IMG/VR virus record: IMGVR_UViG_2778261505_000002
DNA: 64,000 bases
Origin: a virus
Taxonomy: Duplodnaviria; Heunggongvirae; Uroviricota; Caudoviricetes
Direction: 5' to 3' (one strand)
The position numbers were made by a program, and so were the translations under genes. How positions within the stretch are numbered: the first letter of the stretch is position 1; the number at the start of each line of letters is the position of its first letter. The notes below the pieces were generated by a model. That model was not told the origin of the DNA. It worked only from the letters and a program-made list of their open reading frames with translations, and made no database searches. Positions 12,342-64,000 of the stretch are shown here, piece after piece.

Positions 12342-12593
12342 ATGCTAGGCAGCCTGATGACAAAGCTAAAAGTTGCTTTGATTACGCTGGCTGCCGTTCT
12401 TTTCGTTCTTGTCGGCGCTTACACGATGGGCGGGAATGCGGCGCGACGAGCAATGGAAGAGAAGGCAAAACAGGAAGACAGAAAACGACTTCAAAGCACA
12501 GTGGAAGTGGTGAATGAGACGAGCAATAAAATACGTCAGAAAGATGCTTCTGCCGTTCATCGTGAGTTGTATGATAAGTGGGTGCGTCATTAA
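12342..12593 (+). CDS. i-spanin (Rz-like)
   Basis: N-terminal TM helix followed by a charged coiled-coil region; a +1-frame lipoprotein ORF overlaps its 3' end. Confidence 0.7.
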   Translation: MLGSLMTKLKVALITLAAVLFVLVGAYTMGGNAARRAMEEKAKQEDRKRLQSTVEVVNETSNKIRQKDASAVHRELYDKWVRH

Positions 12594-12729
12594 ACCACAA
12601 ACCGCCAGCGTATTGTTCTGCGATGGAGCTGGGCCTATCTATATCAGCAATAATGATGTGATGACCGAAGAAACCGAACGCCAAATCCTTTTTCACAATA
12701 CGATGGGAGAGAGAGTTTGCGGTTGGTGA
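12544..12729 (+). CDS. o-spanin (Rz1-like outer-membrane lipoprotein)
   Basis: Lipobox (MISG|C) in an ORF overlapping the 3' end of the Rz-like gene in another frame; start set at the internal Met before the signal peptide (track ORF begins at 12514). Confidence 0.65.
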   Translation: MLLPFIVSCMISGCVIKPQTASVLFCDGAGPIYISNNDVMTEETERQILFHNTMGERVCGW

Positions 12730-12738
12730 TGCGAAGTT

Positions 12739-12754
12739 CCCCTCACTTGAGGGG
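12739..12754. terminator. Hairpin between convergent genes (candidate bidirectional terminator)
   Basis: CCCCTC-ACTT-GAGGGG stem-loop between the Rz1 stop and the stop of the minus-strand GNAT gene. Confidence 0.4.
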
Positions 12755-12760
12755 AGTACA

Positions 12761-13282
12761 TTATTCTTCGAACAATTTTTCGATAGATTTTGTAGGATAG
12801 AACAAAGAACGCTCGTTGTTACCAACCAGCTGGATAAAGTCTAAACTTTTATAAAACGCCTTGGCTTTGTCATTTAACGCCTCAACGAAAAGTCCATGAA
12901 TGCCTACAGCAAGAGATGCATTGTACACAACGCGCATTGCATGTGTTACAAGCATTGAGCCAAATCCTTGACCTTGAAGGGACTTGTCCAAAGCCAGCCT
13001 ACCCAAAGTAACACTTGGAACATTCCGATAAGGTACCTTCTTTTGCTGGCTTCTTGAAGGTAAGGACTCCTTTTCAAAGCAGCTACCTGACAAAGTGTAA
13101 TACCCTAACACTTTTGGTCTGCCTTCTTTCGTGCAAAGCACATAAGCGCGAAGAATTTTTCCCTCATGCTGCCTTTTTAAGTGGTTGGTTAAAAAGGCAT
13201 TTAGTGATTCTTCACCGCAATCAAAACCATTCAAATCATAATCTTTCTCTCCAGAGAAAATTTCTATCTTTATATTATCCAC
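12761..13282 (-). CDS. GNAT-family acetyltransferase toxin (TacT/AtaT/KacT-like)
   Basis: GNAT fold motifs (QGQGFGSML, acetyl-CoA binding region); 173 aa; immediately downstream of a DUF1778-type RHH antitoxin gene. Confidence 0.8.
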   Translation of the reverse strand: MDNIKIEIFSGEKDYDLNGFDCGEESLNAFLTNHLKRQHEGKILRAYVLCTKEGRPKVLGYYTLSGSCFEKESLPSRSQQKKVPYRNVPSVTLGRLALDKSLQGQGFGSMLVTHAMRVVYNASLAVGIHGLFVEALNDKAKAFYKSLDFIQLVGNNERSLFYPTKSIEKLFEE

Positions 13283-14546: not shown

Positions 14547-14905
14547 TGTCCATGAAAATGGGTGACCTAGCAAAGCGCAAAGAGCCTGATGCACCGGCTA
14601 AGAACACAACTCCTTTGCGCCAACCAGTCAGACCACAGGGACGCCCGACTCGTGGCAAAGAGAAAATTAAAAGCCGCACAATGTCACTGGAGGACGAATA
14701 CTTCGAACTGCTGGAGATGATGAAGTTCATCCCTCGCTTCGAGAAGTTCACTCGTTCTGACGTGATTCGAGCAGCCATTTTCCATCTGGCAGAGAAGTCA
14801 CCGCAGGAAATCGAGGACATCGTGAAATTGAATGAGGCGATCACCGCTGCCGATGTCACGATGCGTACCGATGAAATCAAACGAGAGTTGATGAAGAAAG
14901 GTTAA
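14546..14905 (+). CDS. Small centromere-binding partition protein (ParG/ParB-like, type Ib)
   Basis: 119 aa, basic N-terminal tail, operonic with parA (overlapping start/stop). Confidence 0.6.
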   Translation: MSMKMGDLAKRKEPDAPAKNTTPLRQPVRPQGRPTRGKEKIKSRTMSLEDEYFELLEMMKFIPRFEKFTRSDVIRAAIFHLAEKSPQEIEDIVKLNEAITAADVTMRTDEIKRELMKKG

Positions 14906-14910
14906 AAATC

Positions 14911-14941
14911 ATGCATTGGCGCGTACATTGCGCCAATGCAT
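14911..14941. terminator. 12-bp perfect hairpin between convergent genes (terminator or protein-binding site)
   Basis: ATGCATTGGCGC-GTACATT-GCGCCAATGCAT; a T-run follows on the minus strand. Confidence 0.5.
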
Positions 14942-14957
14942 AACTACAGTGTCAGCT

Positions 14958-15725
14958 TTATGCCGCGCTAACACTATGTTCAGTCCTAACCACCCCAACC
15001 TTCACAAAAGGGCTACCGTAGCTTGGTGGCTTCTTGATTAATTTGCCTACATACAGTTTTCTAATATGCTCATCGGCTATTCTGCCAACAAATTCATAAC
15101 GTTTTGTGTCGGGGCCAAGAGCTATATCCCTTGTAAAGTACTGCTGAGAACCGGCTTTGACCCAGCATTCAATCTGATAAACTTCCATTATCAGCCCACC
15201 ATATGTAGCGTAGGCATATTTGAGATTCTCGTCTCTTGGAACCTTTGCCCATACGCCACGCGTAGCTTCATATAATGCCAGAGCGGACATTCCTGACTTG
15301 TAGGTGCTGTTTAGCAGGAAGGCAAGACCGGCGTGCTCAGGAGCAATTTCAGTTTCCTCTTGCAGCACTAAGTGATGGTAGGCGTCTAGTGATATTCTGC
15401 CCATCATGGAACCACTTCCTCGTACCTTATTCGTAAGCTCTCCGACCCCCATAAGGTCGATGCATGTCGCCTCAACAAGTTTGGCTGTGGTTTCATCCAT
15501 ACCATGACGAAGTATATCTATGCCTAATTTTTTATTAGCCAAAAGTTCTTTGATCCGCATGGATTTGGGAGAGTCATCGGGATACTTGATGTGATCGAGA
15601 CAACGAGTCGATTTGCCTTTTCCTATGTAAAACGGTCTTTTCATCTTGTCTTCTGTATCATAGAGACAGTAAACATAGTATTTAGCCTTATCCAATGATC
15701 TCGCGTATACCGATAAATCGTCCAT
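14958..15725 (-). CDS. GIY-YIG nuclease-domain protein
   Basis: N-terminal YVYCLYD...PFYIGKGK motif (GIY-YIG); 255 aa; isolated on the minus strand. Confidence 0.6.
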   Translation of the reverse strand: MDDLSVYARSLDKAKYYVYCLYDTEDKMKRPFYIGKGKSTRCLDHIKYPDDSPKSMRIKELLANKKLGIDILRHGMDETTAKLVEATCIDLMGVGELTNKVRGSGSMMGRISLDAYHHLVLQEETEIAPEHAGLAFLLNSTYKSGMSALALYEATRGVWAKVPRDENLKYAYATYGGLIMEVYQIECWVKAGSQQYFTRDIALGPDTKRYEFVGRIADEHIRKLYVGKLIKKPPSYGSPFVKVGVVRTEHSVSAA

Positions 15726-15837
15726 TATTGCATCTCTTTGCTACTGACTAATGCGTTCTATTTTACACATAAGTTTTTAATCAATTTAACAGGCTCAAAG
15801 TGTAGAGCTTCTGGGCGTCTAAGACGACAAGTTATGC

Positions 15838-15892
15838 CTGCTTCCGTATATATAAATAATAAGTAACTTATTAAATATATACGGAAGCAGGT
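15838..15892. repeat. Large palindrome (17-bp inverted arms around an AT-rich palindromic core)
   Basis: CCTGCTTCCGTATATAT ... ATATATACGGAAGCAGG; a near-identical element recurs at 61770-61825. Confidence 0.7.
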
Positions 15893-15998
15893 CTTTTAAA
15901 AGACACCACCAGAACAACTCCCTTCCGTTTCCACTTCCAAAAACTGCCACCAGTCGCTATCATCCGCTCATTGTGATAAGTAAGTAACTACCTACCAG

Positions 15999-16748
15999 GT
16001 GAGCCACATGAGCCAAATCTTTTTCGATACCATCGACAACGACCAGTACGACTTCATGACAGAGTGGAATACCGCTGTTATGGACAAGTGGGTCGCTGAA
16101 AACATTGGTTTGTCGCGCTGTAAAGACGAGGCTGAACTCTTCGAGACGAAGTGGTTTGATTACCGCGACATGCATCCTCTCATGGCCACCTGTCTTTTTA
16201 CGGAGGCATACAAACGTCAGTACTCAAATATCATGCTGACGCACGGTCGCGAACACTTTGAAACAGCTCCGTTCACCACCGGGTTAAAACGTCTGCCTTA
16301 TCAGGAGTTGTCGACTGCCAATAAAACGTCGCTATGGAAAGCACGCCAGTTTGCGGATCGCTATTGCTGCTCATACGACTACTTTATCTCCACCGTTCTT
16401 TCCGCAGCTGCACGACGGCTGTGGGACAAGCTGCCGCGCCCACAGCATTTATGGCAGCCAGAACTGATTGAGATATTTGAAGAGAAATTAGCCAGACGCG
16501 CAACAACCCGTCTGGATGACTCTCTGGTTAGCTTTAAGCATATGGGAGACATGCAGTTCAACCCGATTCAGGAAAGCTATTTTGAGTGGATTCTGGAGCG
16601 TTTGCGCACCATCCCTCGCAGCAAGCGCATACGCGCAATTTTCTCCGCTATCTGGCTAATGGAAATCGTTCCAGAGCGCCTTATTTCCGCCCACTTTCCA
16701 GAAGAACTGGAAGAAGCACGGCGGTTTATTGATCCCCTATCTAATTAA
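15999..16748 (+). CDS. Hypothetical protein (first gene of the replication block; possible helicase loader)
   Basis: 249-aa ORF directly upstream of the DnaB-like helicase; no motif recognised. Confidence 0.4.
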   Translation: MSHMSQIFFDTIDNDQYDFMTEWNTAVMDKWVAENIGLSRCKDEAELFETKWFDYRDMHPLMATCLFTEAYKRQYSNIMLTHGREHFETAPFTTGLKRLPYQELSTANKTSLWKARQFADRYCCSYDYFISTVLSAAARRLWDKLPRPQHLWQPELIEIFEEKLARRATTRLDDSLVSFKHMGDMQFNPIQESYFEWILERLRTIPRSKRIRAIFSAIWLMEIVPERLISAHFPEELEEARRFIDPLSN

Positions 16749-19470: not shown

Positions 19471-20253
19471 ATGAAAGACGAAATTCAGAAATTAGCCTGC
19501 GACATCATTGATAAAACTGGTTTAGAAATCAGCGAGAGCAATCGGCTAGACATCATTGAAAAAGCCGTAAAAACAGCAATGGATCATATCGCCACTCGTT
19601 TGGTCGAGATCCCGCTACCGGGGCTACCTTATCTGAAGGTTAAGTTACACGTATGGGGTGAACCTTCTTGTGCACGGCGTTCTGCATTAGTTGTTTTTAT
19701 TAGCAAAGAAAACCCGATCAGTCTTAAAGTGCAGGTTGGGGCATGGATGGATGGCAAAGTGATCTACACAAATACCGTTTTTTGTGCGTCAAATGACAGT
19801 ATTATTGAAGAGGCTATTCAAGAATCACTTCTAACTATGCATAGCTTATTTTTGCTGGAAGACAAGCAAAACTACGAAGAGTACTTACGGTCGATAAAAG
19901 GTGAGAGAACATTGTCACTTAAAGCCGATTTCGTTACCCCGACAAACCTGTTGGAAGTCTTGCTTAATAAAGGGGCTAATGATGCCGTAAATGTAATCAG
20001 AGAGAGTGAGTATGCGTCTCTTTGCGACATGTGCAAAAGCCAGTTGGATCTGGTGCATATCGTTATTGATGCTGGGAAGGCATGTGATGGCGTAATGGCG
20101 GAGTTTGCTGGGAAGATGGTCAGGATTGCTAACGAATTACCGATGATAGAGCAAGAGGCTAAATCATACGCCACCAATCATGTCACAGAGCTTCTTGTCC
20201 CCTATCGCTTAGAAAGCGATCAGCGCAAGATGATTAGCTGGGGAAGTTGGTAA
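19471..20253 (+). CDS. Hypothetical protein
   Basis: 260-aa ORF with upstream palindromic motif and GGAG RBS. Confidence 0.45.
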   Translation: MKDEIQKLACDIIDKTGLEISESNRLDIIEKAVKTAMDHIATRLVEIPLPGLPYLKVKLHVWGEPSCARRSALVVFISKENPISLKVQVGAWMDGKVIYTNTVFCASNDSIIEEAIQESLLTMHSLFLLEDKQNYEEYLRSIKGERTLSLKADFVTPTNLLEVLLNKGANDAVNVIRESEYASLCDMCKSQLDLVHIVIDAGKACDGVMAEFAGKMVRIANELPMIEQEAKSYATNHVTELLVPYRLESDQRKMISWGSW

Positions 20254-20308
20254 GCTCTCAGTGTGTCGTTTTTTACGCAAATAATGATAGGTAAGCACAA
20301 GATTATTT

Positions 20309-20791
20309 TTGGCGGTAATTGTGAAAGCTGATTTGTCAAAAATCCCCTCTATTTCAGGAAATAATGGTTATTCACTTCGTTGTGAGGAAGTAAAGATAAA
20401 CGGTGAGTCGGCATATTGCAGCTACTCCGTTTGCCAGCACACCATTCTTGCCTTCAAAGAAAACCGTCTTCCTCGAACTTCATTCCAGTCGTGCGCAACC
20501 GCTATCAAAGCAGGCAAATGCAAGGCGTTAAAAATGATGGTTGAAGAGATTCGTAAAGGAGAATCTCTGTATTTCGAAGATATGACCGCGCTCATTAAGG
20601 AGGTTGAAGAACGGAATAAACAAGCCAGAACTTTAAAACGAAAACGTGACAGTGTAACGATTAATAGCATGGTTAAGAAGAGCGCCACATCACAAACAGC
20701 GATCACTGACGTGTATGCGGCGTTGCTTGAAGAAACAACAAAAGAAACACATGAGCAAATCGATCAACATATGGAGGTAAAACAACAATGA
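20309..20791 (+). CDS. Hypothetical Cys-rich protein
   Basis: 160-aa ORF; several Cys in the N-terminal half; 3' end overlaps the ligase start. Confidence 0.4.
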   Translation: MAVIVKADLSKIPSISGNNGYSLRCEEVKINGESAYCSYSVCQHTILAFKENRLPRTSFQSCATAIKAGKCKALKMMVEEIRKGESLYFEDMTALIKEVEERNKQARTLKRKRDSVTINSMVKKSATSQTAITDVYAALLEETTKETHEQIDQHMEVKQQ

Positions 20792-22110
20792 AAAAGTTGA
20801 TCGCACTTAAGCATAAGCTGGACGAAATGAAAGTTATGGGCACCAATGCAAAAAAAGAGGCATTGGCCAACATGGATGACTTTGAACAAAGCATGGTTTC
20901 ATTGATGCTCAACCCTTTCATCCGTTTTGGGGTAAAGAAATACAAAGTGGCAGAGCCGCTTAGTGAGTCCATCCCAAGTGACGAAAAAGCCATTGATGTA
21001 CTGAATAAGCTGGCCTCTCGCGAGCTAACGGGGAACGCAGCAATAGCAGCTGTTGAGTCTATCGTGGCGTCAATGTGCGCCGATGGGCAGGACGTGTTCC
21101 GTCGTTTCCTCTTAAAAGACCCGAAAGCTGGCGTTGGGATTAGCCTATGCAACAAGGTTTTTGAAAATCCCATTCCGAAATTCGAGGTGCAGCTGGCGTC
21201 ACCGTATAAAGAAAAAGGCGACAAATACCCCTTCAAGCCAAATCCTAAAGCAAAATGGCCGATGATTGGCAGTCTTAAGCTCGATGGTTTGCGAGTAATT
21301 TGCGAGGTTATTGTTGACGAGGAAGAGGTTAACTTCCTTTCTCGTACTGGTAATCCAATCACGTCTCTCGATCACCTAAAGCCAGCCATGCTCGAATTAG
21401 GCAAACTTTCAGGCCACAAACACATCTTCTTCGATGGTGAAGGAACTGCCGGTTCATTTAACCAGTCCGTATCTGCATTGCGCAAAAAGAACGTGCAGGC
21501 AATTGGCGCTATTTATCATGTTTTCGACTTCTTCCTACCGGAATGGCGAGCACAGGCTAAATCCAAAGAGTATGCAAAGACAGGTATGAAGCTGAAAGAG
21601 CGCCTGGCTATGCTGGTGGCGTTGTTCAAAAACGATCGCAGTGAAGGCTACACACAAGACATTCACCTGCATCCGTTCTATATCATCCATAGCCACGAAG
21701 ACTTCATCGAACGCTTCATGAAACGCCTGGACGATAACGAAGAAGGGGAGATGGGCAAAGATCCGAACTCTGTTTACGAGTTTAAACGTACCCGCAGCTG
21801 GTGGAAGTTAAAAGACGAAGATTCAGAAGATGGTGAAATTATCGACTTTGAGCCGGGCGACCCGGACTCTGGTTTTGCCAACACACTTGGAAAAATTGTT
21901 ATTCGTCTTGAAAACGGCGTCATCGTTCGTGCGAGCGGCATTAAGCATAAATATCTGGATGAGATCTGGAACAACAAAGAGAAGTACCGTGGTCGTATTG
22001 TCGAGGTTCATTGTCACGAGAAAACACCGGACGGCAGCTTACGCCACCCACGACTGAAATGGCCGCGTTGCTTACGCGATACAGAAGATCGAATCGGAGA
22101 TAAAGAATGA
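20788..22110 (+). CDS. ATP-dependent DNA ligase
   Basis: Adenylation motif I (KLDGLR) and downstream nucleotidyltransferase motifs; 440 aa. Confidence 0.8.
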   Translation: MKKLIALKHKLDEMKVMGTNAKKEALANMDDFEQSMVSLMLNPFIRFGVKKYKVAEPLSESIPSDEKAIDVLNKLASRELTGNAAIAAVESIVASMCADGQDVFRRFLLKDPKAGVGISLCNKVFENPIPKFEVQLASPYKEKGDKYPFKPNPKAKWPMIGSLKLDGLRVICEVIVDEEEVNFLSRTGNPITSLDHLKPAMLELGKLSGHKHIFFDGEGTAGSFNQSVSALRKKNVQAIGAIYHVFDFFLPEWRAQAKSKEYAKTGMKLKERLAMLVALFKNDRSEGYTQDIHLHPFYIIHSHEDFIERFMKRLDDNEEGEMGKDPNSVYEFKRTRSWWKLKDEDSEDGEIIDFEPGDPDSGFANTLGKIVIRLENGVIVRASGIKHKYLDEIWNNKEKYRGRIVEVHCHEKTPDGSLRHPRLKWPRCLRDTEDRIGDKE

Positions 22111-22269
22111 TGCTCGGCTGGATGATTGCATTTTTAGCAGTTGGTTTTTTCATAGGTATTGTGGTGATGTCCAGTTGCATCAATGACTACATTAAAAGCG
22201 GTGTTATAGAAAGACGCGGTCGTATTTATCGCATTGTAGAAATAACCAACACCCTGAAGGAGATTAAGG

Positions 22270-22485
22270 ATGATCGTATTAAGTAAACGGGAGAAGGAAA
22301 CGCTTCATGAAATCAGTAAGTGGCCGGAGTTCCCTGAGTACTGGAAGCCTAAAACGCGAGCTAAGTTAGAGCGTTTAGGGTTGGTTGCAAACGTTTCTGA
22401 AACGTGGTGTTCGGCCAACTACCAGTTAACTGATAAAGGGAAAGTATTGCTACAGCAATTAGTAGAATCAGGAGCGTTAAAATGA
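22270..22485 (+). CDS. Hypothetical small protein
   Basis: 71-aa ORF with AAGGAG RBS. Confidence 0.4.
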   Translation: MIVLSKREKETLHEISKWPEFPEYWKPKTRAKLERLGLVANVSETWCSANYQLTDKGKVLLQQLVESGALK

Positions 22486-22630
22486 TTCCATACATCTCAT
22501 TAGCTTTTATGGGTGGCTTCCTTATCGGCTTCGGCATCTGTCGTGATTTAATTAAGCAGGAACTTAAAACCAAAACACTGTGCATCGGAAAGCGTGTGTA
22601 TCGGGTAGTTCATGAAACAAAGGTGAAAAT

Positions 22631-22921
22631 ATGAGCAATTTAACTTCTTGGGAATGGTGGTTGGCCACCTATTTCTTAGCGGCCGGAGTCGCATTCGCCT
22701 TTTACGTAGGTCAGTTAGTCGTAAAACTGTTGCTGATTAAATTTGCTAGTCATAAACGTATCGATGATGGTCTGTGGCGTCTTGGCACCCTGGTGGAAAC
22801 TCGCTACGGGCAACTTAAGGAGAACGAAACCATTACTATCCAAGCGAAACGATTCACTGCCACCATTACAAGAACACCTAGTCGTAGAGTGGCCTTGATC
22901 AAAAAAGTCACAACCGAATAA
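22631..22921 (+). CDS. Hypothetical membrane protein
   Basis: 96-aa ORF with an N-terminal TM helix. Confidence 0.4.
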   Translation: MSNLTSWEWWLATYFLAAGVAFAFYVGQLVVKLLLIKFASHKRIDDGLWRLGTLVETRYGQLKENETITIQAKRFTATITRTPSRRVALIKKVTTE

Positions 22922-23699
22922 AAACATATTGATAAGTATTTACTTACTTATCTTTTATGTATAAGATGACTTTGTTTTCGTTGAGACGCGACTGTTTGAA
23001 CTTAAATACAAGTGCAAACGAAGAAGTCTATCTGGCAGTAGCCTAATAAGCCAAACACCAGCGAGGTCAGTTTCCAGCCTCGTTACCGAAATGGGACACA
23101 CTGAGCGAGTGTGATTGCAGAACGCAGGAGGGAACATTCATGTTCCCTCCGATGAAGTAACAGAATGGGCGGTTGGTATATTTTCAACTCCATATGACTC
23201 CCGGATTCTTAGCCACTGACCGCCCATCCTGTTACGTCATTTTGTTCAATTATGTCGTTTATACTGGGTTAAAAAGCGGCGACGTAGCCCGGCTGGTATG
23301 GTTAGCCAGCACACAACGTTGAGGCCATTACATTTTTATCAATTCTAAGGTTCTATTCACAGAGATACCGGCGAGCGTTGATATGTAACATGTTGGGCAA
23401 ACATTCAATCGGAGTAGTGGCCTCAACGTTGTGAAGACAGGATTGTTGTGTAGGTTTAACCACTGTTGCCATTGGTGCCTGTTTTCACAACAAATGATTC
23501 CATACATCACATTGTATAAATTACAAAGTAGGTGCTGTCCTCAGAAACATCATCTACTTAAAGATTTTGCCTTCTACTATTGAGCGAAGTCGAAAGCGTC
23601 TGGCACTAACGAAAAGTGCAAGTAGCGGTGCGTTTCCTGGCAGAAACTAAACCGTCGCGATTGGCACTGTTGAGTAATAAATACTGGCAGTGCTGAATT

Positions 23700-44172: not shown

Positions 44173-44705
44173 ACCGCTGACAGCATACACAATCAACTAC
44201 CGCTGATAGCATATCGAGAGTCTATCTCACCGCTCACAGCATACATTACTCGATTTTTTACCGCTGACAGCATACTTAAGAAATTGCATGAATAATGTGT
44301 CCCGGTATGGGTATAACCAGAACAAAATTACCGCTGGCAGCATACGAATGTCTGACATATACCATTAATTACCGCTGATAGCATATCCAAACAAAAATTC
44401 CTCAATAAAACACCGCTGACAGCATACATTCTATCAGAGAGTAGCAGGCAATAAATGCCTTTCACTACAAGCAATCAGCGCAATAGCAATAGAATGTTAG
44501 TGAGCGCAAACCTATATGGAATGCACTCTTCGAGGTTAGTAACCACTGGGGAGGTATGACAGAGCATTGAGTGGTGATAGATGATTTACCGCTCACAGCA
44601 TACGTTCATCTCACTATACCGCTGGTAGCATATCTTTAACCGTTCACAGCATACTTTTCAGAAAAATAGCCGCTGATAGCATACATTTCACCGCTGACAG
44701 CATAT
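44173..44705. repeat. Iteron array downstream of repA (incA-like), about 12 copies of a 16-bp repeat
   Basis: ACCGCTGACAGCATAC and close variants at about 44173, 44199, 44228, 44259, 44329, 44370, 44411, 44587, 44618, 44639, 44668, 44690; variable spacing; ends at the rep stop codon. Confidence 0.85.
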
Positions 44706-45799
44706 CAAAGCAGTTTGAGACTATTGGAAAGGATCTCAATCATCTTGATATTTTCAGGCGTCAAATTCTGCGAAAGTTCGGTTATCTTGTTGATAATGTT
44801 CTGTTTGGCATCAATTTCCCCAGCTTTCTCATCTGGTTTTTTGGGTTCGATGTCTTCAGGTTTTGGCGGTGCGACTTTGAGTTTTGGATTGCGGCTGTGA
44901 ATCTGGATATAGATCGACCGCCCACGCTTAATCTCGCTGTATTCGAGATAGCCCAAATCTTGGAGAGCTTTTAAGCCGTTACGTATAGTCTGATTCTGCG
45001 AGCTGACATTCCTGCTACTCAAATTGAGTCGCGCACGCAATCGAGCAAGCGATACCGGCGCAGGCTTGGTTGGAAGACTTTCGATGAAGGTGTACAGAGC
45101 CTGTGCTGTTTCTTTGCGTGGTAGCTTATTGATAACCTTTAACTGCAAAAGAACCTTATGGTCAAAGCGATATAGTTCGGCCAGCTTCGGTTCTGCATAG
45201 AACACCACCGTATCTTTCTGCTCGTTGTAGTCCACGCTATTGATGAGGTGCACCATCAGAAGCGAGATCTTGTTAGAGCCGTCGACGTTCTTTTCTTCAT
45301 ACGTTCTCTGGAAAGACAGAGTTGTACGCATGATCTTCAAAAGACTGTTTGTAAGCCGGTCGCGGAGTGTTTTGCGGATCTGTGACGATGGATAGCCACA
45401 AAACTTAGCAAATTTCGTGATACTTAACTCGACACGACCGTTAGGTTCGCCGTATTCTGCCAGCGAACGCACAACGCCCACCCACGTTTTGAAATCATGA
45501 TCCATGTCGAGACGAGGACCGGTTATCTTGATATCGGAATAGCCTTCAGAACGGGCTACTTCGAGCTGGACAAGCTCCTTTGAAGCATCGATCTCATTTG
45601 GCTTGTTACGTTTACTGTATTTTGTTCCCTTAAGCGTGGGGACGAACAACCCCAGTCGCATCAACGCAATTGGTTGGACTGTATTGTTGCTATTAGGGAC
45701 AAGTTCCCCTGTGTACAATTCAAGGGAACCTTCTTCAAAGTTGTCGATGTTATCTTCTACTTCTTTGTTATTTTTACCTTTTTTATTTTTTGTGGACAT
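44705..45799 (-). CDS. repA: Plasmid-type replication initiator (RepA-like, iteron-binding)
   Basis: Flanked on both sides by arrays of the same 16-bp iteron; start set at ATG after AAAGG RBS (track ORF extends to 45919 across the upstream iterons); basic protein of RepA-like size. Confidence 0.7.
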   Translation of the reverse strand: MSTKNKKGKNNKEVEDNIDNFEEGSLELYTGELVPNSNNTVQPIALMRLGLFVPTLKGTKYSKRNKPNEIDASKELVQLEVARSEGYSDIKITGPRLDMDHDFKTWVGVVRSLAEYGEPNGRVELSITKFAKFCGYPSSQIRKTLRDRLTNSLLKIMRTTLSFQRTYEEKNVDGSNKISLLMVHLINSVDYNEQKDTVVFYAEPKLAELYRFDHKVLLQLKVINKLPRKETAQALYTFIESLPTKPAPVSLARLRARLNLSSRNVSSQNQTIRNGLKALQDLGYLEYSEIKRGRSIYIQIHSRNPKLKVAPPKPEDIEPKKPDEKAGEIDAKQNIINKITELSQNLTPENIKMIEILSNSLKLL

Positions 45800-45819
45800 G
45801 TGGACACCTTTGTCATTCA

Positions 45820-45921
45820 ACCGCTGACAGCATACTTGATTTGCCGCTGACAGAATACCAAAAACAGTTGGCAGCATACGGTGAACCGCTGACAGACTAT
45901 CAATTACCGCTGACAGCATAC
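45820..45921. repeat. Iteron array upstream of repA (incC/origin-like), 5 copies at ~21-23 bp spacing
   Basis: ACCGCTGACAGCATAC-type repeats at 45820, 45843, ~45864, 45885, 45906, overlapping the presumed rep promoter. Confidence 0.85.
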
Positions 45922-45959
45922 ATGAACATGACTTCAGACCAGTCGTGGCGCGGCTTACA

Positions 45960-46040
45960 GCGATCGGGGATCTTATTTGATCTATATAAGGATCTATCTA
46001 TGGATCTCTTTATTAGGATCTATCCTGTGGATATGTGAAT
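45960..46040. promoter_or_regulatory. Candidate replication origin core: GATC cluster in AT-rich DNA plus DnaA-box-like site
   Basis: Six GATC sites within ~60 bp (45962-46020) and TGTGGATAT (46026-46034, 8/9 match to the DnaA box complement) immediately beyond the upstream iterons. Confidence 0.65.
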
Positions 46041-46120
46041 AATTAAAACAGGCATTTACTACCTTCGGCGCACCTGGTGGGTTATCGTTGCCTCGGCTAA
46101 CAATCACAGAAAAATGACAT

Positions 46121-46765
46121 ATGGATCTAAAACGCACGCGCTGGGTTCGTCGTCTTGAAGACGGCTCCTACACTATCGAATCAAATTCCAACCTGAATAA
46201 GCAGAAGTTGCTTTGTGACATCTGCGGTATAGCGGCGAAGTGCCCGATCTACGAAACCAGAATTAAACTTGATAAGGCTGGTGTGAATTTTCATTTAAAC
46301 AGTTGCATCAGGTACGTTCCATTACTCGCATTTCGTAAACCGATCATCGGATTGGATGCCCCCTACTTCAACACACTCCGTTCAGGTGTGACGTGGCGAG
46401 ATCGTTTATCACCAGACAAGCTGATTTGCCTCGTATCCGCAGACACAGGGAAAATCATCCGTTTTGGGAAAGTAGACAAGGTTTACTCAGGCCCAGTAGA
46501 CGAAATGTTGCGGAAACACAGCCGGTTTAATCATCTCTGTATGGGTGGTGAGAAAATCGAGAAGGTAGAAGAAGTGATCCGCAAATCCTACGGACACTTT
46601 CTGACCAAAGATAGCCTGCTCACCGCAATCTACATCAGACATGTAAAACGTGAGTTCGACCTCGAATACCACAGCGAAGAAGAGCTTAACCTTGTTGACC
46701 CACGTCCAAAAGCTGGCGTCATAAGCATAAACGCAGCGCGTAAAAAGCCCACTGACGCGCTGTAA
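46121..46765 (+). CDS. Hypothetical protein
   Basis: 214-aa ORF adjacent to the origin region. Confidence 0.45.
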   Translation: MDLKRTRWVRRLEDGSYTIESNSNLNKQKLLCDICGIAAKCPIYETRIKLDKAGVNFHLNSCIRYVPLLAFRKPIIGLDAPYFNTLRSGVTWRDRLSPDKLICLVSADTGKIIRFGKVDKVYSGPVDEMLRKHSRFNHLCMGGEKIEKVEEVIRKSYGHFLTKDSLLTAIYIRHVKREFDLEYHSEEELNLVDPRPKAGVISINAARKKPTDAL

Positions 46766-47019
46766 CCCTCCAGATCGTATATTGGCGTAGATAGAATCTA
46801 CGCCTCCTCAAAATAGCTCTCATAGCGTTCTACAGTGATCCTGTCTTATTTTTAGTCATACAGACAAGCAAAGTTGCGCCACAATAAATAGGTATATACT
46901 TACTTATAAATTTTGTATATTAAGACGCTCGTTTCATTCCTAACATACCGTTATGCATAGTTGTTTACCTTCTCATTGCTCTTAAAATTTGTATCAAAAT
47001 AACCACAAAGGAAAAACAC

Positions 47020-48105
47020 ATGACTTTGCCATACGGCGTCATTTCTGACTGCCACTACCACAAATGGGATGCGTTCTCCACGACGAACGCAGAGGGGCTT
47101 AACTCCAGACTTGAAATACAGTTGGAAGCAACGAAAGAAGCAGCCATCGCCATGAAGAAGGCCGGTTGTAAGTACATGTTGGTTGCCGGTGATACATTTC
47201 ACGTCCGAGGAACTGTGTCCCCTTCTGTTTTGCATTACGTAACTGAAACGTACAAGTGGATTATCAACGAGCTTGATCTGACAGTAGTAATGCTGGCCGG
47301 TAATCACGATCTTGAAACCAACGATTCAGTATATAGCGCCAACGCAGCAGCATCGCTGAGTTCTATCGGCGTGGTAATCGTATGTGGCAAACGCCCACAC
47401 TCAATAAAAATTGGTGATGTGACTGTCCACCTGATTAGCTGGCGTAACAATCATGCGGAGCTTATCAGCGATCTGAAAGCATTACGTAAGAGCGTAGAAG
47501 GTGATAATCATGACGTTGTTATCCATACATCCATTAACAAAGCCATTCCAACAATGCCTGACGTCGGTATCGATGCGCAGGAGTTAAAGGATATCGGCTT
47601 TCGTCTCGTGCTTAGTGGGCATTACCACAACCACAAAGAGGTCATTCCTGGAGTTATCAGTGTCGGTGCGCTGACCCATCAAAATTGGGGAGATGTTGGA
47701 TCTCTGGCTGGTTACATGATCGTAAACCCGGACGGCAGTTTCAGTCACTACGAAACCAGTGCGCCTAAATTCATTAACCTGGAAGATTATGTTGCCGATG
47801 ACCAAATTCGCGGCAACTACGTGCGTTTCCGCGCCGTAATTGAGAACGATGAAGAAGGCATTAAGTACCAGAACATCCTCAAAACAATGGGTGCAAAAGG
47901 TGTCGTGTGCAACTTCATCCGTAAGTCATCAATGATGGAAGGGACAGCAAGCACAACGGAAACCAGCAAAATCGATAGCCTGGGAGAGTCGGTATCTGCT
48001 TATTGCAAGATTGTCCACGATACTGACGGCGGATTTGATCTGAGCAAGTTGGATATTTTGTGTCAGGAAATCCTCACCGAAGCGGAGAGTTCGGAGGCTG
48101 TGTGA
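47020..48105 (+). CDS. SbcD/Mre11-like nuclease (calcineurin-like phosphoesterase)
   Basis: Metallophosphoesterase motifs (VAGDTFH, LAGNHD, GHYH); followed by an SbcC-like gene. Confidence 0.8.
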   Translation: MTLPYGVISDCHYHKWDAFSTTNAEGLNSRLEIQLEATKEAAIAMKKAGCKYMLVAGDTFHVRGTVSPSVLHYVTETYKWIINELDLTVVMLAGNHDLETNDSVYSANAAASLSSIGVVIVCGKRPHSIKIGDVTVHLISWRNNHAELISDLKALRKSVEGDNHDVVIHTSINKAIPTMPDVGIDAQELKDIGFRLVLSGHYHNHKEVIPGVISVGALTHQNWGDVGSLAGYMIVNPDGSFSHYETSAPKFINLEDYVADDQIRGNYVRFRAVIENDEEGIKYQNILKTMGAKGVVCNFIRKSSMMEGTASTTETSKIDSLGESVSAYCKIVHDTDGGFDLSKLDILCQEILTEAESSEAV

Positions 48106-59445: not shown

Positions 59446-60003
59446 ATGACAACGATTGTTGCAGGCATCGATATCGAGTCTACGGGACTGGATTTCCTTG
59501 CTGGTCATAAAATTATTGAAATCGCAATTACCCGCTATGAACTGGAGACACAGAGACATATTGATAGTCTGGAGATGCGTTTTAACCCTCGCAGAAACAT
59601 AGATCCGAAAGCTCAAGCCGTTCATGGCATTTCATTGGAACAGCTCGCAGCTGAACCTTTGTTGTCAAATCATGCCAGCGAAATTGGCGCTTATATGGGG
59701 GCATGTAGTGTGTGGGTTGCTCATAACGGCGAAGCATTTGATATACCATTTATTCGACACGAGTTTTCAGGGTATGGAGTAAGACTGCCAGAAGTTCCTG
59801 TTATAGATACTATGTTATCGGGATTTTGGGCCACAGAAGACGGTAAACGTCCCCGCCTTGAAGAGTTGGCCTTCTCTCTTGGCTTTATATACGATCATGC
59901 CAAAGCACATAGTGCCTTATATGACACAAACTTAATGATGCAATGCTTCTTTAAGGCACGTAATAAGTACGGATTTTTTAAATTACCCTCTGAAATTGTG
60001 TAA
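59446..60003 (+). CDS. DnaQ-like 3'-5' exonuclease (DEDDh family)
   Basis: Exo I (GIDIESTGL), Exo II (VAHNGEAFDIPFI), Exo III (HSALYDT) motifs. Confidence 0.8.
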   Translation: MTTIVAGIDIESTGLDFLAGHKIIEIAITRYELETQRHIDSLEMRFNPRRNIDPKAQAVHGISLEQLAAEPLLSNHASEIGAYMGACSVWVAHNGEAFDIPFIRHEFSGYGVRLPEVPVIDTMLSGFWATEDGKRPRLEELAFSLGFIYDHAKAHSALYDTNLMMQCFFKARNKYGFFKLPSEIV

Positions 60004-60007
60004 AACA

Positions 60008-60046
60008 AAAGCCTACTTTAAAAAGTTTAAAGTAGGCTTTCTTTTA
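60008..60046 (+). terminator. Rho-independent terminator
   Basis: AAAGCCTACTTTAAA-AAG-TTTAAAGTAGGCTTT followed by CTTTT. Confidence 0.8.
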
Positions 60047-60161
60047 AAGAACAGTCGCCTTTCAATCATTTCCTGCCTGTATTTAATACTTTTCCGCCTG
60101 ATAGGTTTAGTCAAAATGCAGCCATCGAAACGCAAATGTAACCAAACAGAAGGAGACTTAC

Positions 60162-60971
60162 ATGAGTTCGGTTGAAAATGTAATGACAAATGATGATCTG
60201 GACGAGCTGACAGCCATGTTGCAATCACTTGATGAACCAGTAAAAAAAGCTGCACAGGTTGAAAATACTGATGATATTGACGATCTGCTGCTCGGCCTAG
60301 ATGCTGGCGTAGCCATGAGTTCTGATGATGTTGCCGAAGAACTGTTCAATGAAGAAAAAGCAGGTGATTTCAGCTCTGCTTTAAATGAGTTGGAGTTAGC
60401 GCATGAGCCTATAAACGTAATTAACGCTGAAAGTGTTGAAGCTGCCGAAAACGAGCCAGAACAATTGGGATTTATTGAGGTTGAAGAGTGTGTTGAGGTT
60501 AATGATGAATTAAAAGTTCAACAGTCAAATGATAGCAATACAAATAAAAAAGCTCGTACTGCAAGAGGTCCTCGTTTTACTTTAAGTGATAAAGATGATT
60601 CGTTTTTCAATAAAGCGGGCTTAGAAAAAGATATTTTCTTAGACGCTTACGATAACGCGCCTGTCAAAGCAAAGGATAAGATATTAAACCTTCTTAATTG
60701 GTTTAGCGGAGGTCCAGATATTAGTGTTTACACGGTAATTTCCATGAGACACCTTCTCACAGAAAAGAAGGCTACAAGTAATAGTATTAAGATTGCTTTA
60801 ATGAGCAATCCAGAAAAACCGTATCCGCTTAATACTGCGTCAACTCAGGCTGGGCAAATGATGGCTGTATTTCCAGCGACAGGAATTGCCGTTAGAGACG
60901 GTGGAAATCTAACATTGAACGAAGAATCACCGATCGTTAAGAAGTTTGTCGCGGAGTACACTATTGGATGA
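60162..60971 (+). CDS. Hypothetical protein with strongly acidic N-terminal half
   Basis: 269 aa; D/E-rich N-terminal ~110 aa; immediately upstream of the Dam-family MTase gene. Confidence 0.45.
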   Translation: MSSVENVMTNDDLDELTAMLQSLDEPVKKAAQVENTDDIDDLLLGLDAGVAMSSDDVAEELFNEEKAGDFSSALNELELAHEPINVINAESVEAAENEPEQLGFIEVEECVEVNDELKVQQSNDSNTNKKARTARGPRFTLSDKDDSFFNKAGLEKDIFLDAYDNAPVKAKDKILNLLNWFSGGPDISVYTVISMRHLLTEKKATSNSIKIALMSNPEKPYPLNTASTQAGQMMAVFPATGIAVRDGGNLTLNEESPIVKKFVAEYTIG

Positions 60972-61154
60972 CGTTCCCCTACTTAAAATAAAGCCCATAG
61001 AGAGCTTTATAGTACTGGGTAAGCCAATCACATACCCAGCACCACAAAAACGCGCTAGAGAGCTTCTCGTTTGCATTTCTGGCGCGTTTTATTTGATTGC
61101 CAGACATAAAATCAAATGCAAAAATAGGTATATACTTACCTATCGAGAAAGAAG

Positions 61155-61748
61155 ATGATTGCAGCCGAAAAAATCAAACAGCGAAAGCGCGACAACTCTC
61201 TTCGTGACCTCTGGAGAACACCTGACTGGCTGTTTTCTGCCATTCAACGTTATCTTGGAGTGACATTTGATGTTGACGTTGCCTGCAACAAGGACAATGC
61301 AAAGCTGCCTAATTTCATAGGCGTTGAGCGTGATGCTTTGAAATCTGAATGGGGACAGCCAGGTACAATTGCCTTCCTCAATCCACCCTACTCCAAAATC
61401 TACCCCTGGATTGATGCGGCTATACGTGAGCAGGCTCGCGGAGTTACAACAGTGATGCTAATTCCTCAATCCCTAGATACAAAGTGGTATGAGCGTGCAA
61501 CAGAGTGTGCGAATGAGACGATTATTCTGTCTGGTGGCCGCGTAGCGTTTGTCGAGCCTGACGTAAATCTGGGGCAGGTAGAAGTAAACATCAACCCAGG
61601 TGGCAGTATGCTCGTTGTTTTTCGAGGATTCTGTCAGGACGCTGGGCACTCTATAAGCAAGATCCCTTTGGACGTCATGAAAAGTCTGGGAGGGTATGAT
61701 CCTGCGAATGTGATCAGGAAAAAAAGACCATCAAAGAAGGCTGCTTAG
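61155..61748 (+). CDS. DNA N6-adenine methyltransferase (phage Dam family)
   Basis: Catalytic NPPY motif (IAFLNPPYSKIYPW) and T1-Dam-like architecture; 197 aa. Confidence 0.8.
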   Translation: MIAAEKIKQRKRDNSLRDLWRTPDWLFSAIQRYLGVTFDVDVACNKDNAKLPNFIGVERDALKSEWGQPGTIAFLNPPYSKIYPWIDAAIREQARGVTTVMLIPQSLDTKWYERATECANETIILSGGRVAFVEPDVNLGQVEVNINPGGSMLVVFRGFCQDAGHSISKIPLDVMKSLGGYDPANVIRKKRPSKKAA

Positions 61749-61769
61749 TTTGTTCTGGCGTCTGTAATT

Positions 61770-61825
61770 AGCCTGCTTCTGTATATATAAATAACTACAT
61801 ATTAATTATTAATATACGGAAGAAG
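61770..61825. repeat. Second copy of the large palindrome (CTTCTGTATATAT ... ATATACGGAAG)
   Basis: Near-identical in arms and AT-rich core to the element at 15838-15892. Confidence 0.65.
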
Positions 61826-61933
61826 GCTGTTTTGTATCAGAGACTCCAGACCTGAACATCACTACAGAATCCACTAGAACCCCTTCCCAGACGCTTTAAA
61901 ATCGATTTTATGAACCACTTTAAGGAAACCAAC

Positions 61934-62164
61934 ATGTCATACCCGACTAATGTCGTTGCGCTCGTAGAGAGCGATTTTCTGGCCCAGGCTCGTGAAATGA
62001 TGAAAGATCGTGAGCAGGCTTTCAACTTGTACGAATGGGCAATTAAGTGCTTGCATCTTGGCGAGCATCGCGAACTTGTTGAACAGCTTTTAGGTGAGTT
62101 GATCAATGAGGTGTTTGCCTTGAATGTTCAACTACATGGTAGAGAAAATAATCAATCACAATGA
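61934..62164 (+). CDS. Hypothetical small protein
   Basis: Start at ATG after AAGGAAAC (track ORF begins at 61910). Confidence 0.4.
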   Translation: MSYPTNVVALVESDFLAQAREMMKDREQAFNLYEWAIKCLHLGEHRELVEQLLGELINEVFALNVQLHGRENNQSQ

Positions 62165-62747
62165 TAGATAAGTACAAACTATTCATAAAGTGAATTGTAA
62201 GTGCTAAGATCTGATAGTTTCCAGTCGTAGACTGGAGACTCGACCTGATGGGTGGGGGTAAGCGTCACTGGCGTCAGGTTTAAAAAAAGCTCACTACCAG
62301 CGTAGAACTGGTGCCGTTTAGGTGTCGGGGAAGGGGGAACCAAAGTGAGCAGAGACAAGGGTCACTTTATGATTGTCGAGTCTGGGGTGTTTCGAGAGGT
62401 TGAATCCAGTACTCCCCTTCATAAAGTGTGGGAAGATCTCGGTTCTGGGGTGCTGTCATCCATAACTTCCCAAGTCTAAGCTGGCAGTAGACTTAGACCA
62501 TAACTTTTCAGGTTATGAAACGACCAGGTTGGTGAGAGATTTTTATACTCACCTCCCTGGGAGAGTATTACCTGAAAAGACAACCTCTCACTTCGTTCGA
62601 GGTGAACTTCACTCACTTCGTTCGTTCAGTTCAGGTTTATAAAAACCTGTTCTGGGAAGTAATTTGTTTATTTTAATAATTATTAACACGCACGCGTGTG
62701 CGCACGCGCGAGGAAAAATCGGCGCGGCGCTTGATTCAGGAGTTTAT

Positions 62748-63338
62748 ATGACGACGAAGACACCAGCCCGATCGCAAGCAAAAACTCGCAAAAAAGCCAA
62801 AAACAAAAATTCCCCCCGCACCAATCCCACAACGCCTGTCGTAGAGTTCAATCCCCAGCTTAAAACCGTGAAAATCTTTAGTGATGGCTCTTGCCTTAAA
62901 AATCCGGGTGGCCCGGGCGGTTACGGTATCGTTCTCCAGTATCGTGGTGAGGAACGCGAGTTCTCAGATGGTTTTCATAGCACCACCAATAACCGCATGG
63001 AGATGATGGGGGCACTTATCGGGCTGGAGCGTTTGAAATATCCATGCAACGTTATTTTGCACTCTGATAGCCAGTATCTGAAAAACGGCATGACACAGTG
63101 GATGAAATGGTGGAAACGCAATGGATGGATGACTTCTGACAAAAAACCAGTAAAGAATGTTGATCTGTGGAAGCGTCTGGATGAGGCCGCAAGTCGACAT
63201 AATGTTCGCTGGAAGTGGGTTAAAGGTCACGCCGGGCATCGTGAAAATGAAATATGTGATCGACTCGCGAAGATCGCAGCTTTTTCAGCAGCAGATATGC
63301 CTCACAAGAAAGATATTGGTTTTGTTTATAATAAATAG
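62748..63338 (+). CDS. rnhA: Ribonuclease HI with a basic N-terminal extension
   Basis: [60 protein letters not shown] closely match the enterobacterial RnhA motifs as I recall them; start set at ATG after GGAG (track ORF begins at 62664). Confidence 0.85.
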
Positions 63339-63486
63339 TAAGTAAGTGTTTACCTATCATTTTAAATCATGTATCTTATCGGCGTCAGGATGACAATGTG
63401 TCGGTAAGACACAGTTCCAGGATGGAACGAGAAAGGCGGCTGGCAATCGCCAGCCGCAACTCTTTCTGACACTGGATGGAGTCCAC

Positions 63487-63981
63487 ATGGCACGTCAAAC
63501 CTATTTCACTTCTGTAACTAAACGTCCTCGTTCTTTACGTCAAATTTTGGCCGAATTATTTAGCGGTCGGGTTATGTCACGCCTTGATGAACTAGAGACT
63601 ACCGTTCGGTTGCTGAATGAACGTTTAGATAATCAAGCGTCAGTTGTTGCGAACGTGGGGGCGATTGTTGCCTCTGGTTCTTCACGCGAAGCGAAAAATG
63701 CACGGCCTTTAGTGAAGGAGAAAAACAACAAGGACAGTTCGAATGGAAAATTTTCAAAGAAAGAGGCTGAAACCAATGGCCTACGTTCTCATTATAGTTT
63801 CACTGGCGACGGTAGCCGTTCCAGCCGGTCAGAGCCTTTTGATGCCGGATTCATCCATCACCACACCTTCGTCGACGACAATTACCACCACTCCAGTGGA
63901 GCGTCCTGTCACTCTGGATGGGATGGCGGTGGATGCGATACCTCAAGTTCATCCAGTTACTCAGGATCATGCTGTGACTAA
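63487..63981 (+). CDS. Hypothetical protein with Ser/Cys-rich C-terminus
   Basis: 164-aa ORF near the window edge; an alternative-frame ORF (63743-63994) with a TM helix overlaps it, so the true frame is uncertain. Confidence 0.3.
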   Translation: MARQTYFTSVTKRPRSLRQILAELFSGRVMSRLDELETTVRLLNERLDNQASVVANVGAIVASGSSREAKNARPLVKEKNNKDSSNGKFSKKEAETNGLRSHYSFTGDGSRSSRSEPFDAGFIHHHTFVDDNYHHSSGASCHSGWDGGGCDTSSSSSYSGSCCD

Positions 63982-64000
63982 GGCGGTTGTATGAACTGGT

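Follow-up and report, generated by a model that had tools for sequence, protein, structure and literature searches.

Phage-plasmid P1 is the described system that comes closest to the locus analyzed here. It carries an iteron replicon annotated in the order incA, repA, incC, five Dam sites and DnaA, and it encodes an adenine methylase of its own. P1 already provides a precedent for a GATC origin that is combined with a Dam encoded by the phage. A P1-type origin is sequestered by SeqA when half-methylated, and the pac site constitutes a second GATC-dense target in P1. In the P1 Dmt protein, which has 754 amino acids (aa), a C5 methylase (PF00145) is fused to a D12-class Dam (PF02086), and since the dmt gene is annotated behind a promoter, Pdmt, with the C1 operator Odmt, it is by annotation repressed in the prophage. 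Methylation of the origin is essential for the plasmids P1 and ColV-K30, and initiator binding is unlikely to be the reason (PMC2865523). A second point of comparison is offered by the small Dam enzymes of family PF05869 found in phages such as T1, HP1, VT2/Stx and, for M.Phi93DAM, a lactococcal phage. Here we analyze a stretch of 64,000 nucleotides from a virus of the class Caudoviricetes (IMG/VR record IMGVR_UViG_2778261505_000002), referred to as the window, in which an original prediction had combined a methylase gene at 61155-61748 with a GATC-dense candidate origin at 45960-46020 and proposed that the self-encoded Dam frees origin firing from the Dam status of the host.

The reading that we prefer, with a probability of roughly 60%, is that the methylase is an orphan phage Dam that acts in the lytic phase and is probably specific for GATC, and that the P1-type origin is separate from it and served by host Dam. 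The methylase would maintain full methylation of the phage DNA while it replicates rapidly in lytic growth, and such full methylation would make the progeny DNA resistant to enzymes cutting unmethylated GATC and would allow it to avoid host MutH and SeqA, which act on unmethylated or half-methylated GATC. In the plasmid state host Dam would suffice for methylation of the origin.

The window was assigned to an SSU5-like phage-plasmid because of the identities found at 60000-64000 and at 45000-48000. The former region is 99.5% identical to Escherichia phage CMS-2020a, approximately 98% identical to phages Cyrano and PhiR41_1, and 76-78% identical to Salmonella phage SSU5 and Klebsiella SSU5-like phage-plasmids, while the latter is 99.9% identical to many Escherichia coli plasmids with a size near 110 kb, p09EL50 (O104:H4 2009EL-2050) among them. 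These alignments place the window within an E. coli phage-plasmid of the SSU5-like group. The gene on which the analysis centers is the following.

61155-61748, plus strand: orphan N6-adenine DNA methyltransferase of PF05869/TIGR01712 ("phage Dam"), ATG start, 197 aa.

The 197-aa protein matches the PF05869 "Dam" profile with an E value of 2.9e-38 (131.6 bits; cutoff 28.1) and exceeds the cutoff of the NCBIfam equivalog TIGR01712 "phage N-6-adenine-methyltransferase" (113.2 bits; cutoff 97.05), which bears out the earlier description of the enzyme as an NPPY N6-adenine methyltransferase of the phage Dam type; the gene is already routinely annotated under the TIGR01712 name. It also matches PHROG 111 "DNA methyltransferase", and its best PADLOC matches are "orphan methyltransferase" models. 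The NPPY motif occupies residues 76-79 (FLNPPYS). There was no match in the protein to PF02086, the D12-class family that contains E. coli Dam, T4 Dam and the C-terminal domain of P1 Dmt; P1 Dmt in turn is unrelated to PF05869. An AlphaFold2 model shows one Rossmann-type domain (predicted local distance difference test score, pLDDT, 86; predicted template modelling score, pTM, 0.84), and the methylase is thus small and consists of this domain alone, with no target-recognition domain apart from it. The open reading frames (ORFs) flanking the gene (60162-60971 and 61910-62164) gave no Pfam or PADLOC match, and for this reason the locus is not a recognizable restriction-modification pair; a type II restriction-modification system was ruled out, as neither a nuclease nor a defence-model match was found in the neighbouring ORFs.

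Conservation of the gene was followed in two ways. Its orthologues in pHCM2 (Salmonella Typhi) and SSU5 are 86% identical in amino acid sequence at approximately 75% nucleotide identity, with a non-synonymous divergence (Ka) of 0.10 and saturated synonymous sites; at the sequence level the gene is under strong purifying selection. Homologous DNA was found in 720 PLSDB plasmids, most of them from Klebsiella (339), Escherichia (195), Enterobacter (88), Salmonella (49) and Citrobacter (25) and none from Yersinia, and orthologous proteins reach Xenorhabdus and Providencia, where they are encoded on contigs of about 105-110 kb. The methylase is a core gene of the SSU5-like phage-plasmids.

Like other PF05869 phage Dams (T1, HP1, VT2/Stx, M.Phi93DAM), the window enzyme is small, orphan and phage-borne, has NPPY as the only classical motif, and is encoded among replication, recombination or packaging genes. 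Unlike them it belongs to an SSU5-type subfamily of its own, has a short insertion in one loop and carries a basic tail (KKRPSKKAA) at its C terminus. GATC is the parsimonious prediction for its target, and on the strength of the family relationship we regard it as probable, because every characterised PF05869 lineage that could be traced is a GATC enzyme. Membership in PF05869 was confirmed for HP1 orf13, the dam gene product of Stx phage, T1 gp20 and the methylase of the lactococcal 936-group packaging module, and T1 Dam is GATC-specific. For the lactococcal M.Phi93DAM the G(m6A)TC product was demonstrated by single-molecule real-time (SMRT) sequencing and by DpnI/DpnII digestion, NPPY was the sole motif that its authors recognised, and the enzyme protects against DpnII (PMC4190342). 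Phage Dam-like enzymes are listed in PMC7556043, which cites the papers on cloning of the HP1 and VT-2 dam genes. By analogy, protection from restriction by the window methylase is plausible.

It is unlikely, in our estimate, that the methylase instead has relaxed specificity or another motif, in which case it would confer only broad protection from restriction and would have no relation to the origin. The SSU5 clade does form a distinct subfamily, with only 8 clusters at E<=1e-30 and its next relatives approximately 40% identical, in a family of 6628 protein clusters at 50% identity, and the window enzyme has a 3-residue insertion in the loop following the GR-x-F motif, precisely where confidence in the structure model is lowest. 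Non-specific phage adenine methylases also exist, such as Hia5, which has a DPPY motif, an FxGxG motif and a target-recognition domain (PMC3299994). However, the known non-specific enzymes fall in other families: the phiP27 protein L24, a homologue of the relaxed-specificity PhiOS31_p25, belongs to PF01555, and both Hia5 and the PhiOS31_p25/L24 pair were ruled out as members of PF05869 by their other architecture or their PF01555 assignment. Moreover, the HP1, Stx/VT2, T1 and lactococcal Dams all recognize GATC despite mutual identities of 31-38%, a range comparable with the 25-39% identity between each of them and the window methylase. The residues that are invariant in the family are kept in the window enzyme; beyond the start methionine there are 17 invariant columns across it and the four characterised lineages, among them D18, W20, T22, P23, D41, N48, L62, W66, M101, L102, E121, R129 and F132. 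A search of the literature found no measured specificity or methylome for the SSU5 or pHCM2 methylase, and neither avoidance nor enrichment of GATC was seen as a specificity signal, the frequency of the site being unremarkable (266 copies versus 252 +/- 16 in shuffled sequences; Markov observed/expected ratio of 0.83, in the middle of the range for palindromic tetramers).

The candidate origin lies some distance from the methylase gene and consists of the following features.

44174-44705, plus strand: incA-like copy-control array made up of twelve more iterons on the downstream side of the rep gene, comparable with incA of P1.
44705-45799, minus strand: replication initiator of 364 aa with a Rep3_N domain (PF01051; E value 3.9e-9).
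45821-45921, plus strand: five iterons with the core CCGCTGACAGCATAC at approximately 21-bp spacing, beside the rep gene and incC-like.
45930-45961, unstranded: GC-rich spacer GTGGCGCGGC between iterons and GATC repeats, 63% GC, conserved with P1.
45962-46020, unstranded: six GATC-containing repeats spaced by 7, 10, 12, 12 and 14 bp, mostly in a stretch of 29% GC.
46026-46042, minus strand: two adjacent DnaA-box-like 9-mers, TGTGGATAT and TGTGAATAA, which share one base and each have one mismatch to TGTGGATAA.

Read on the minus strand, the incA-like iterons are followed by the rep gene, then by the five iterons and the GC-rich spacer, and finally by the GATC repeats and the tandem DnaA boxes. 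P1, likewise a phage-plasmid that encodes an adenine methylase, shares with the window element the Rep3-family initiator, the five iterons beside the rep gene, the second iteron array downstream, the GC-rich spacer, the GATC repeats and the tandem DnaA boxes. The region 45933-46053 is 78-82% identical in nucleotide sequence to oriR of P1 and P7 (blastn E values from 1e-13 to 1e-17), the GATCs of the window align in register with the annotated Dam sites of P1, and the DnaA-box-like 9-mers take the position of the annotated DnaA site of P1 oriR. The iteron core has 21 matches in the window versus 1.4 expected, and GATC is absent from the iterons, as in P1. Intact origin GATCs number five in P1 and six in the window element (at 45962, 45969, 45979, 45991, 46003 and 46017). 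When 266 GATCs were placed at random 5000 times, six or more fell within one 60-bp window in only 8 of the 5000 runs; every other 60-bp window, in our stretch as well as in the 107.6-kb relative CP053388, held at most three GATCs, and no second cluster resembling P1 pac was present in the whole of that relative. We conclude from these alignments that the GATC cluster is the core of an iteron replicon of the P1-oriR type, the type of origin found in P1 and RepFIB. Since the origin is homologous to those of P1 and RepFIB, it can reasonably be expected to need Dam methylation and, in the half-methylated state, to undergo sequestration by SeqA. The original prediction thus stands in its description of the six GATCs, of the P1-type replicon and, through the requirement reported for P1 and ColV-K30 (PMC2865523), of methylation-gated initiation in P1-type replicons.

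In public records the initiator is labelled as RepB family and given a longer start at 45919 (404 aa). That start would put the RepB frame through all five iterons and the likely promoter; the ATG at 45799 (364 aa, MSTKNKK...) is in better accord with the layout of P1 and with the annotation in Klebsiella.

That the methylase belongs to the phage programme is suggested by its surroundings. The gene lies in a same-strand block with genes for a DNA polymerase III (Pol III) epsilon-like exonuclease, RNase H, ribonucleotide reductase, ThyX, dihydrofolate reductase, MazG and Pnk, and this block is a module for DNA metabolism and replication of the lytic type. Immediately upstream of the methylase we noted a candidate operator that recurs throughout the window.

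61124-61143, unstranded: perfect palindrome ATAGGTA-N6-TACCTAT, candidate operator, 11 nt before the methylase ATG.
61097-61125, plus strand: sigma-70-like promoter, weak and identified by consensus only (TTGCCA-17-AAAAAT with TG), with a -10 that overlaps the palindrome.
5851, 11229, 15976, 19410, 22932, 43381, 46888, 51572, 61124 and 63338: copies of the palindrome, 20 bp each.

The palindrome (consensus ATAGGTAAGTACTTACCTAT) thus occurs in 10 copies versus 0.09 expected, all of them intergenic and 1-50 nt upstream of plus-strand genes. These include, besides the methylase gene, a 1383-aa ORF (probably a tail fiber), a 111-aa ORF (possibly lysis), an nrdA-like and an sbcD-like gene. The palindrome was found in all SSU5-like sequences examined (including Cyrano, pHCM2, SSU5 and pMT1), and upstream of the methylase in Cyrano, pHCM2 and SSU5 its arms are invariant and its spacer variable; it is absent from P1, T1 and phiP27. 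It resembles an operator at which a phage master regulator would act, much as C1 does at its operators in P1, and this would place the methylase in the phage programme. A scan around the methylase gene gave no excess of promoter-like sites (6 versus 7.6 +/- 2.8 in shuffled sequence) and no terminator-like hairpin bounding the gene.

On a separate matter, a gene for a MazG-like nucleoside triphosphate pyrophosphohydrolase adjoins the Dam gene, or shares an operon with it, in HP1 and in P1 (P1 extract 20234-23677). In Cyrano the MazG-like gene (Cyrano extract 3281-4150) lies approximately 5 kb upstream of the methylase in the same module, presumably as in the window.

Whether methylase and origin depend on each other can be judged from elements that have retained only one of them. 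Plasmid pMT1 of Yersinia pestis (63 records) has its origin core in common with the window from exactly position 45961 onward, and its distal origin copy has six intact GATCs, but nothing beyond approximately 51.6 kb of the window is present in it, neither the methylase nor the genes around it, and it contains no homologue of either PF05869 or D12 Dam (tblastn, best E values 0.11-0.53). Its sole annotated methylase is a 225-aa PF01555 (DPPY) enzyme (pMT1 extract 12416-13093) situated in an ArdA/ParB-like leading-region block of the conjugative-plasmid type. More generally, the origin query matched 1626 plasmid records, at least 243 of them conjugative or mobilizable, as compared with 720 for the methylase, and PF05869 enzymes were found in 1969 phage records, including lytic and integrative phages without a plasmid origin. 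All host genera seen belong to the Enterobacterales, which to our knowledge encode Dam, and for this reason independence from host Dam has no obvious natural use. The two phage-plasmid lineages compared here, P1 and the SSU5-like elements, have unrelated Dam-type enzymes, which suggests that the phage lifestyle, and not the origin, calls for such an enzyme. Taken together, pMT1, the origin and methylase counts, the origin-less phages, the C1-controlled dmt gene of P1, the host range and the gene block of the methylase argue against an obligatory link between methylase and origin, and a demonstrable dependence between the two is not supported; that they travel together is explained by both belonging to the same element lineage.

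Four points weigh against a purely lytic, GATC-specific enzyme that is separate from the origin. An identity of 25-39% to the characterised enzymes does not guarantee a GATC target. The palindrome could bind an activator or be no operator at all, and the silence of the methylase in lysogeny is something that we infer. Plasmid pMT1, a degraded derivative, resides in another host and has a methylase of a different family (PF01555). Finally, the annotation of the Cyrano relative names no distinct initiator for lytic replication, unlike that of P1, which has the separate lytic replicon repL/oriL; oriR could thus serve lytic replication, and the methylase would then matter for it.

The last point leads to the possibility that a burst of phage methylase upon induction re-methylates newly replicated origins, ends their SeqA sequestration and lets the plasmid origin fire repeatedly to seed lytic replication. 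Such a switch would accord with the lack of an annotated lytic origin or initiator in Cyrano, with the helicase, primase, Pol III alpha and UvsX/UvsY/gp32-like proteins encoded by that phage in the very module that holds the methylase, and with the finding that the origin alone has a dense GATC cluster. On the other hand, the proposal is purely inferential; oriR would remain restrained by iteron handcuffing and by autoregulation of the initiator, the presence of T4-like recombination proteins suggests that replication depends on recombination and does not require the origin to fire again, and PF05869 enzymes are common in phages without such an origin. We therefore consider the switch quite unlikely, and we give equally little credence to the broader idea of epigenetic self-control of the origin by the element's own Dam, be it as a lytic-origin switch on induction or as a setting of copy number in lysogeny. 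Least tenable is the proposal of the original prediction that methylase made in the plasmid state methylates the origin GATCs and makes initiation independent of the host Dam level, which we find very unlikely: the origin is a genuine, GATC-dense P1-type origin, the methylase probably targets GATC and both are conserved together in SSU5-like elements of E. coli, Klebsiella and Salmonella, but common descent accounts for this co-occurrence, and the six-GATC origin of pMT1 without any Dam homologue, the C1 control of Dam in P1, the Dam-carrying Enterobacterales hosts, and the lytic-type module with its palindrome common to tail, lysis and nrd genes all speak against it.

With the methylase read as a lytic-phase enzyme and the origin as a separate module, the replicons of the relatives merit description in their own right. 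Like the IncFIB/RepFIB-type replicons of pMT1, pHCM2 and SSU5, the window origin has a core of GATC repeats and DnaA boxes followed by the same 214-aa gene. Unlike in the window, the initiator and iterons of those replicons have another specificity, and their origin module is duplicated, as seen at the following coordinates of the respective extracts.

SSU5 1916-2659: tandem origin modules.
Cyrano 1947-2689: tandem origin modules.
pMT1 1552-2295: tandem origin modules.

In the SSU5/Cyrano/pMT1-type replicon, iterons, GATC repeats and a DnaA box are present in each of the two modules. Decay (GGTC, GTTC) has left only three GATCs in the repeat block of the module nearest repA, and the distal module keeps six. 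The conserved 214-aa gene (46121-46765 in the window) directly follows the DnaA boxes in the window, Klebsiella, SSU5, Cyrano and pMT1 replicons; its product has no Pfam match at E<=0.001, matches PHROG 2105 (unknown function) and is annotated with an "ASCH domain" in Cyrano. Although the window and Cyrano are approximately 98% identical around the methylase, their initiators and iterons differ and their origin cores are only about 71% identical: the window (44174-46060) has a RepB-type initiator of 364 aa with CCGCTGACAGCATAC iterons, and the initiator of Cyrano is a RepA of 351 aa, its iterons being of the TACAGTGGAT type. This difference looks like a swap of the replicon module, which has probably changed incompatibility. 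Approximately 2.6 kb past the position that corresponds to the window end, Cyrano also encodes a 561-aa DUF4942 protein (Cyrano extract 14626-16311). DUF4942 accompanies DNA methylase modules in some proteins, and the Cyrano protein may be a second DNA-modification gene of the element.

If it were true that the methylase regulates the origin, the element would be a mobile element setting its own copy number epigenetically, but the current evidence points otherwise. A P1-type, probably Dam-dependent replicon is useful for replicon typing, for the prediction of incompatibility and for vector design. SSU5-like phage-plasmids are very common in clinical Enterobacterales, with the methylase gene carried by 720 PLSDB plasmids, and they spread resistance genes (PMC9600943). 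For strains carrying these elements, knowing the methylase as a probable lytic-phase GATC enzyme helps in the interpretation of methylome data.
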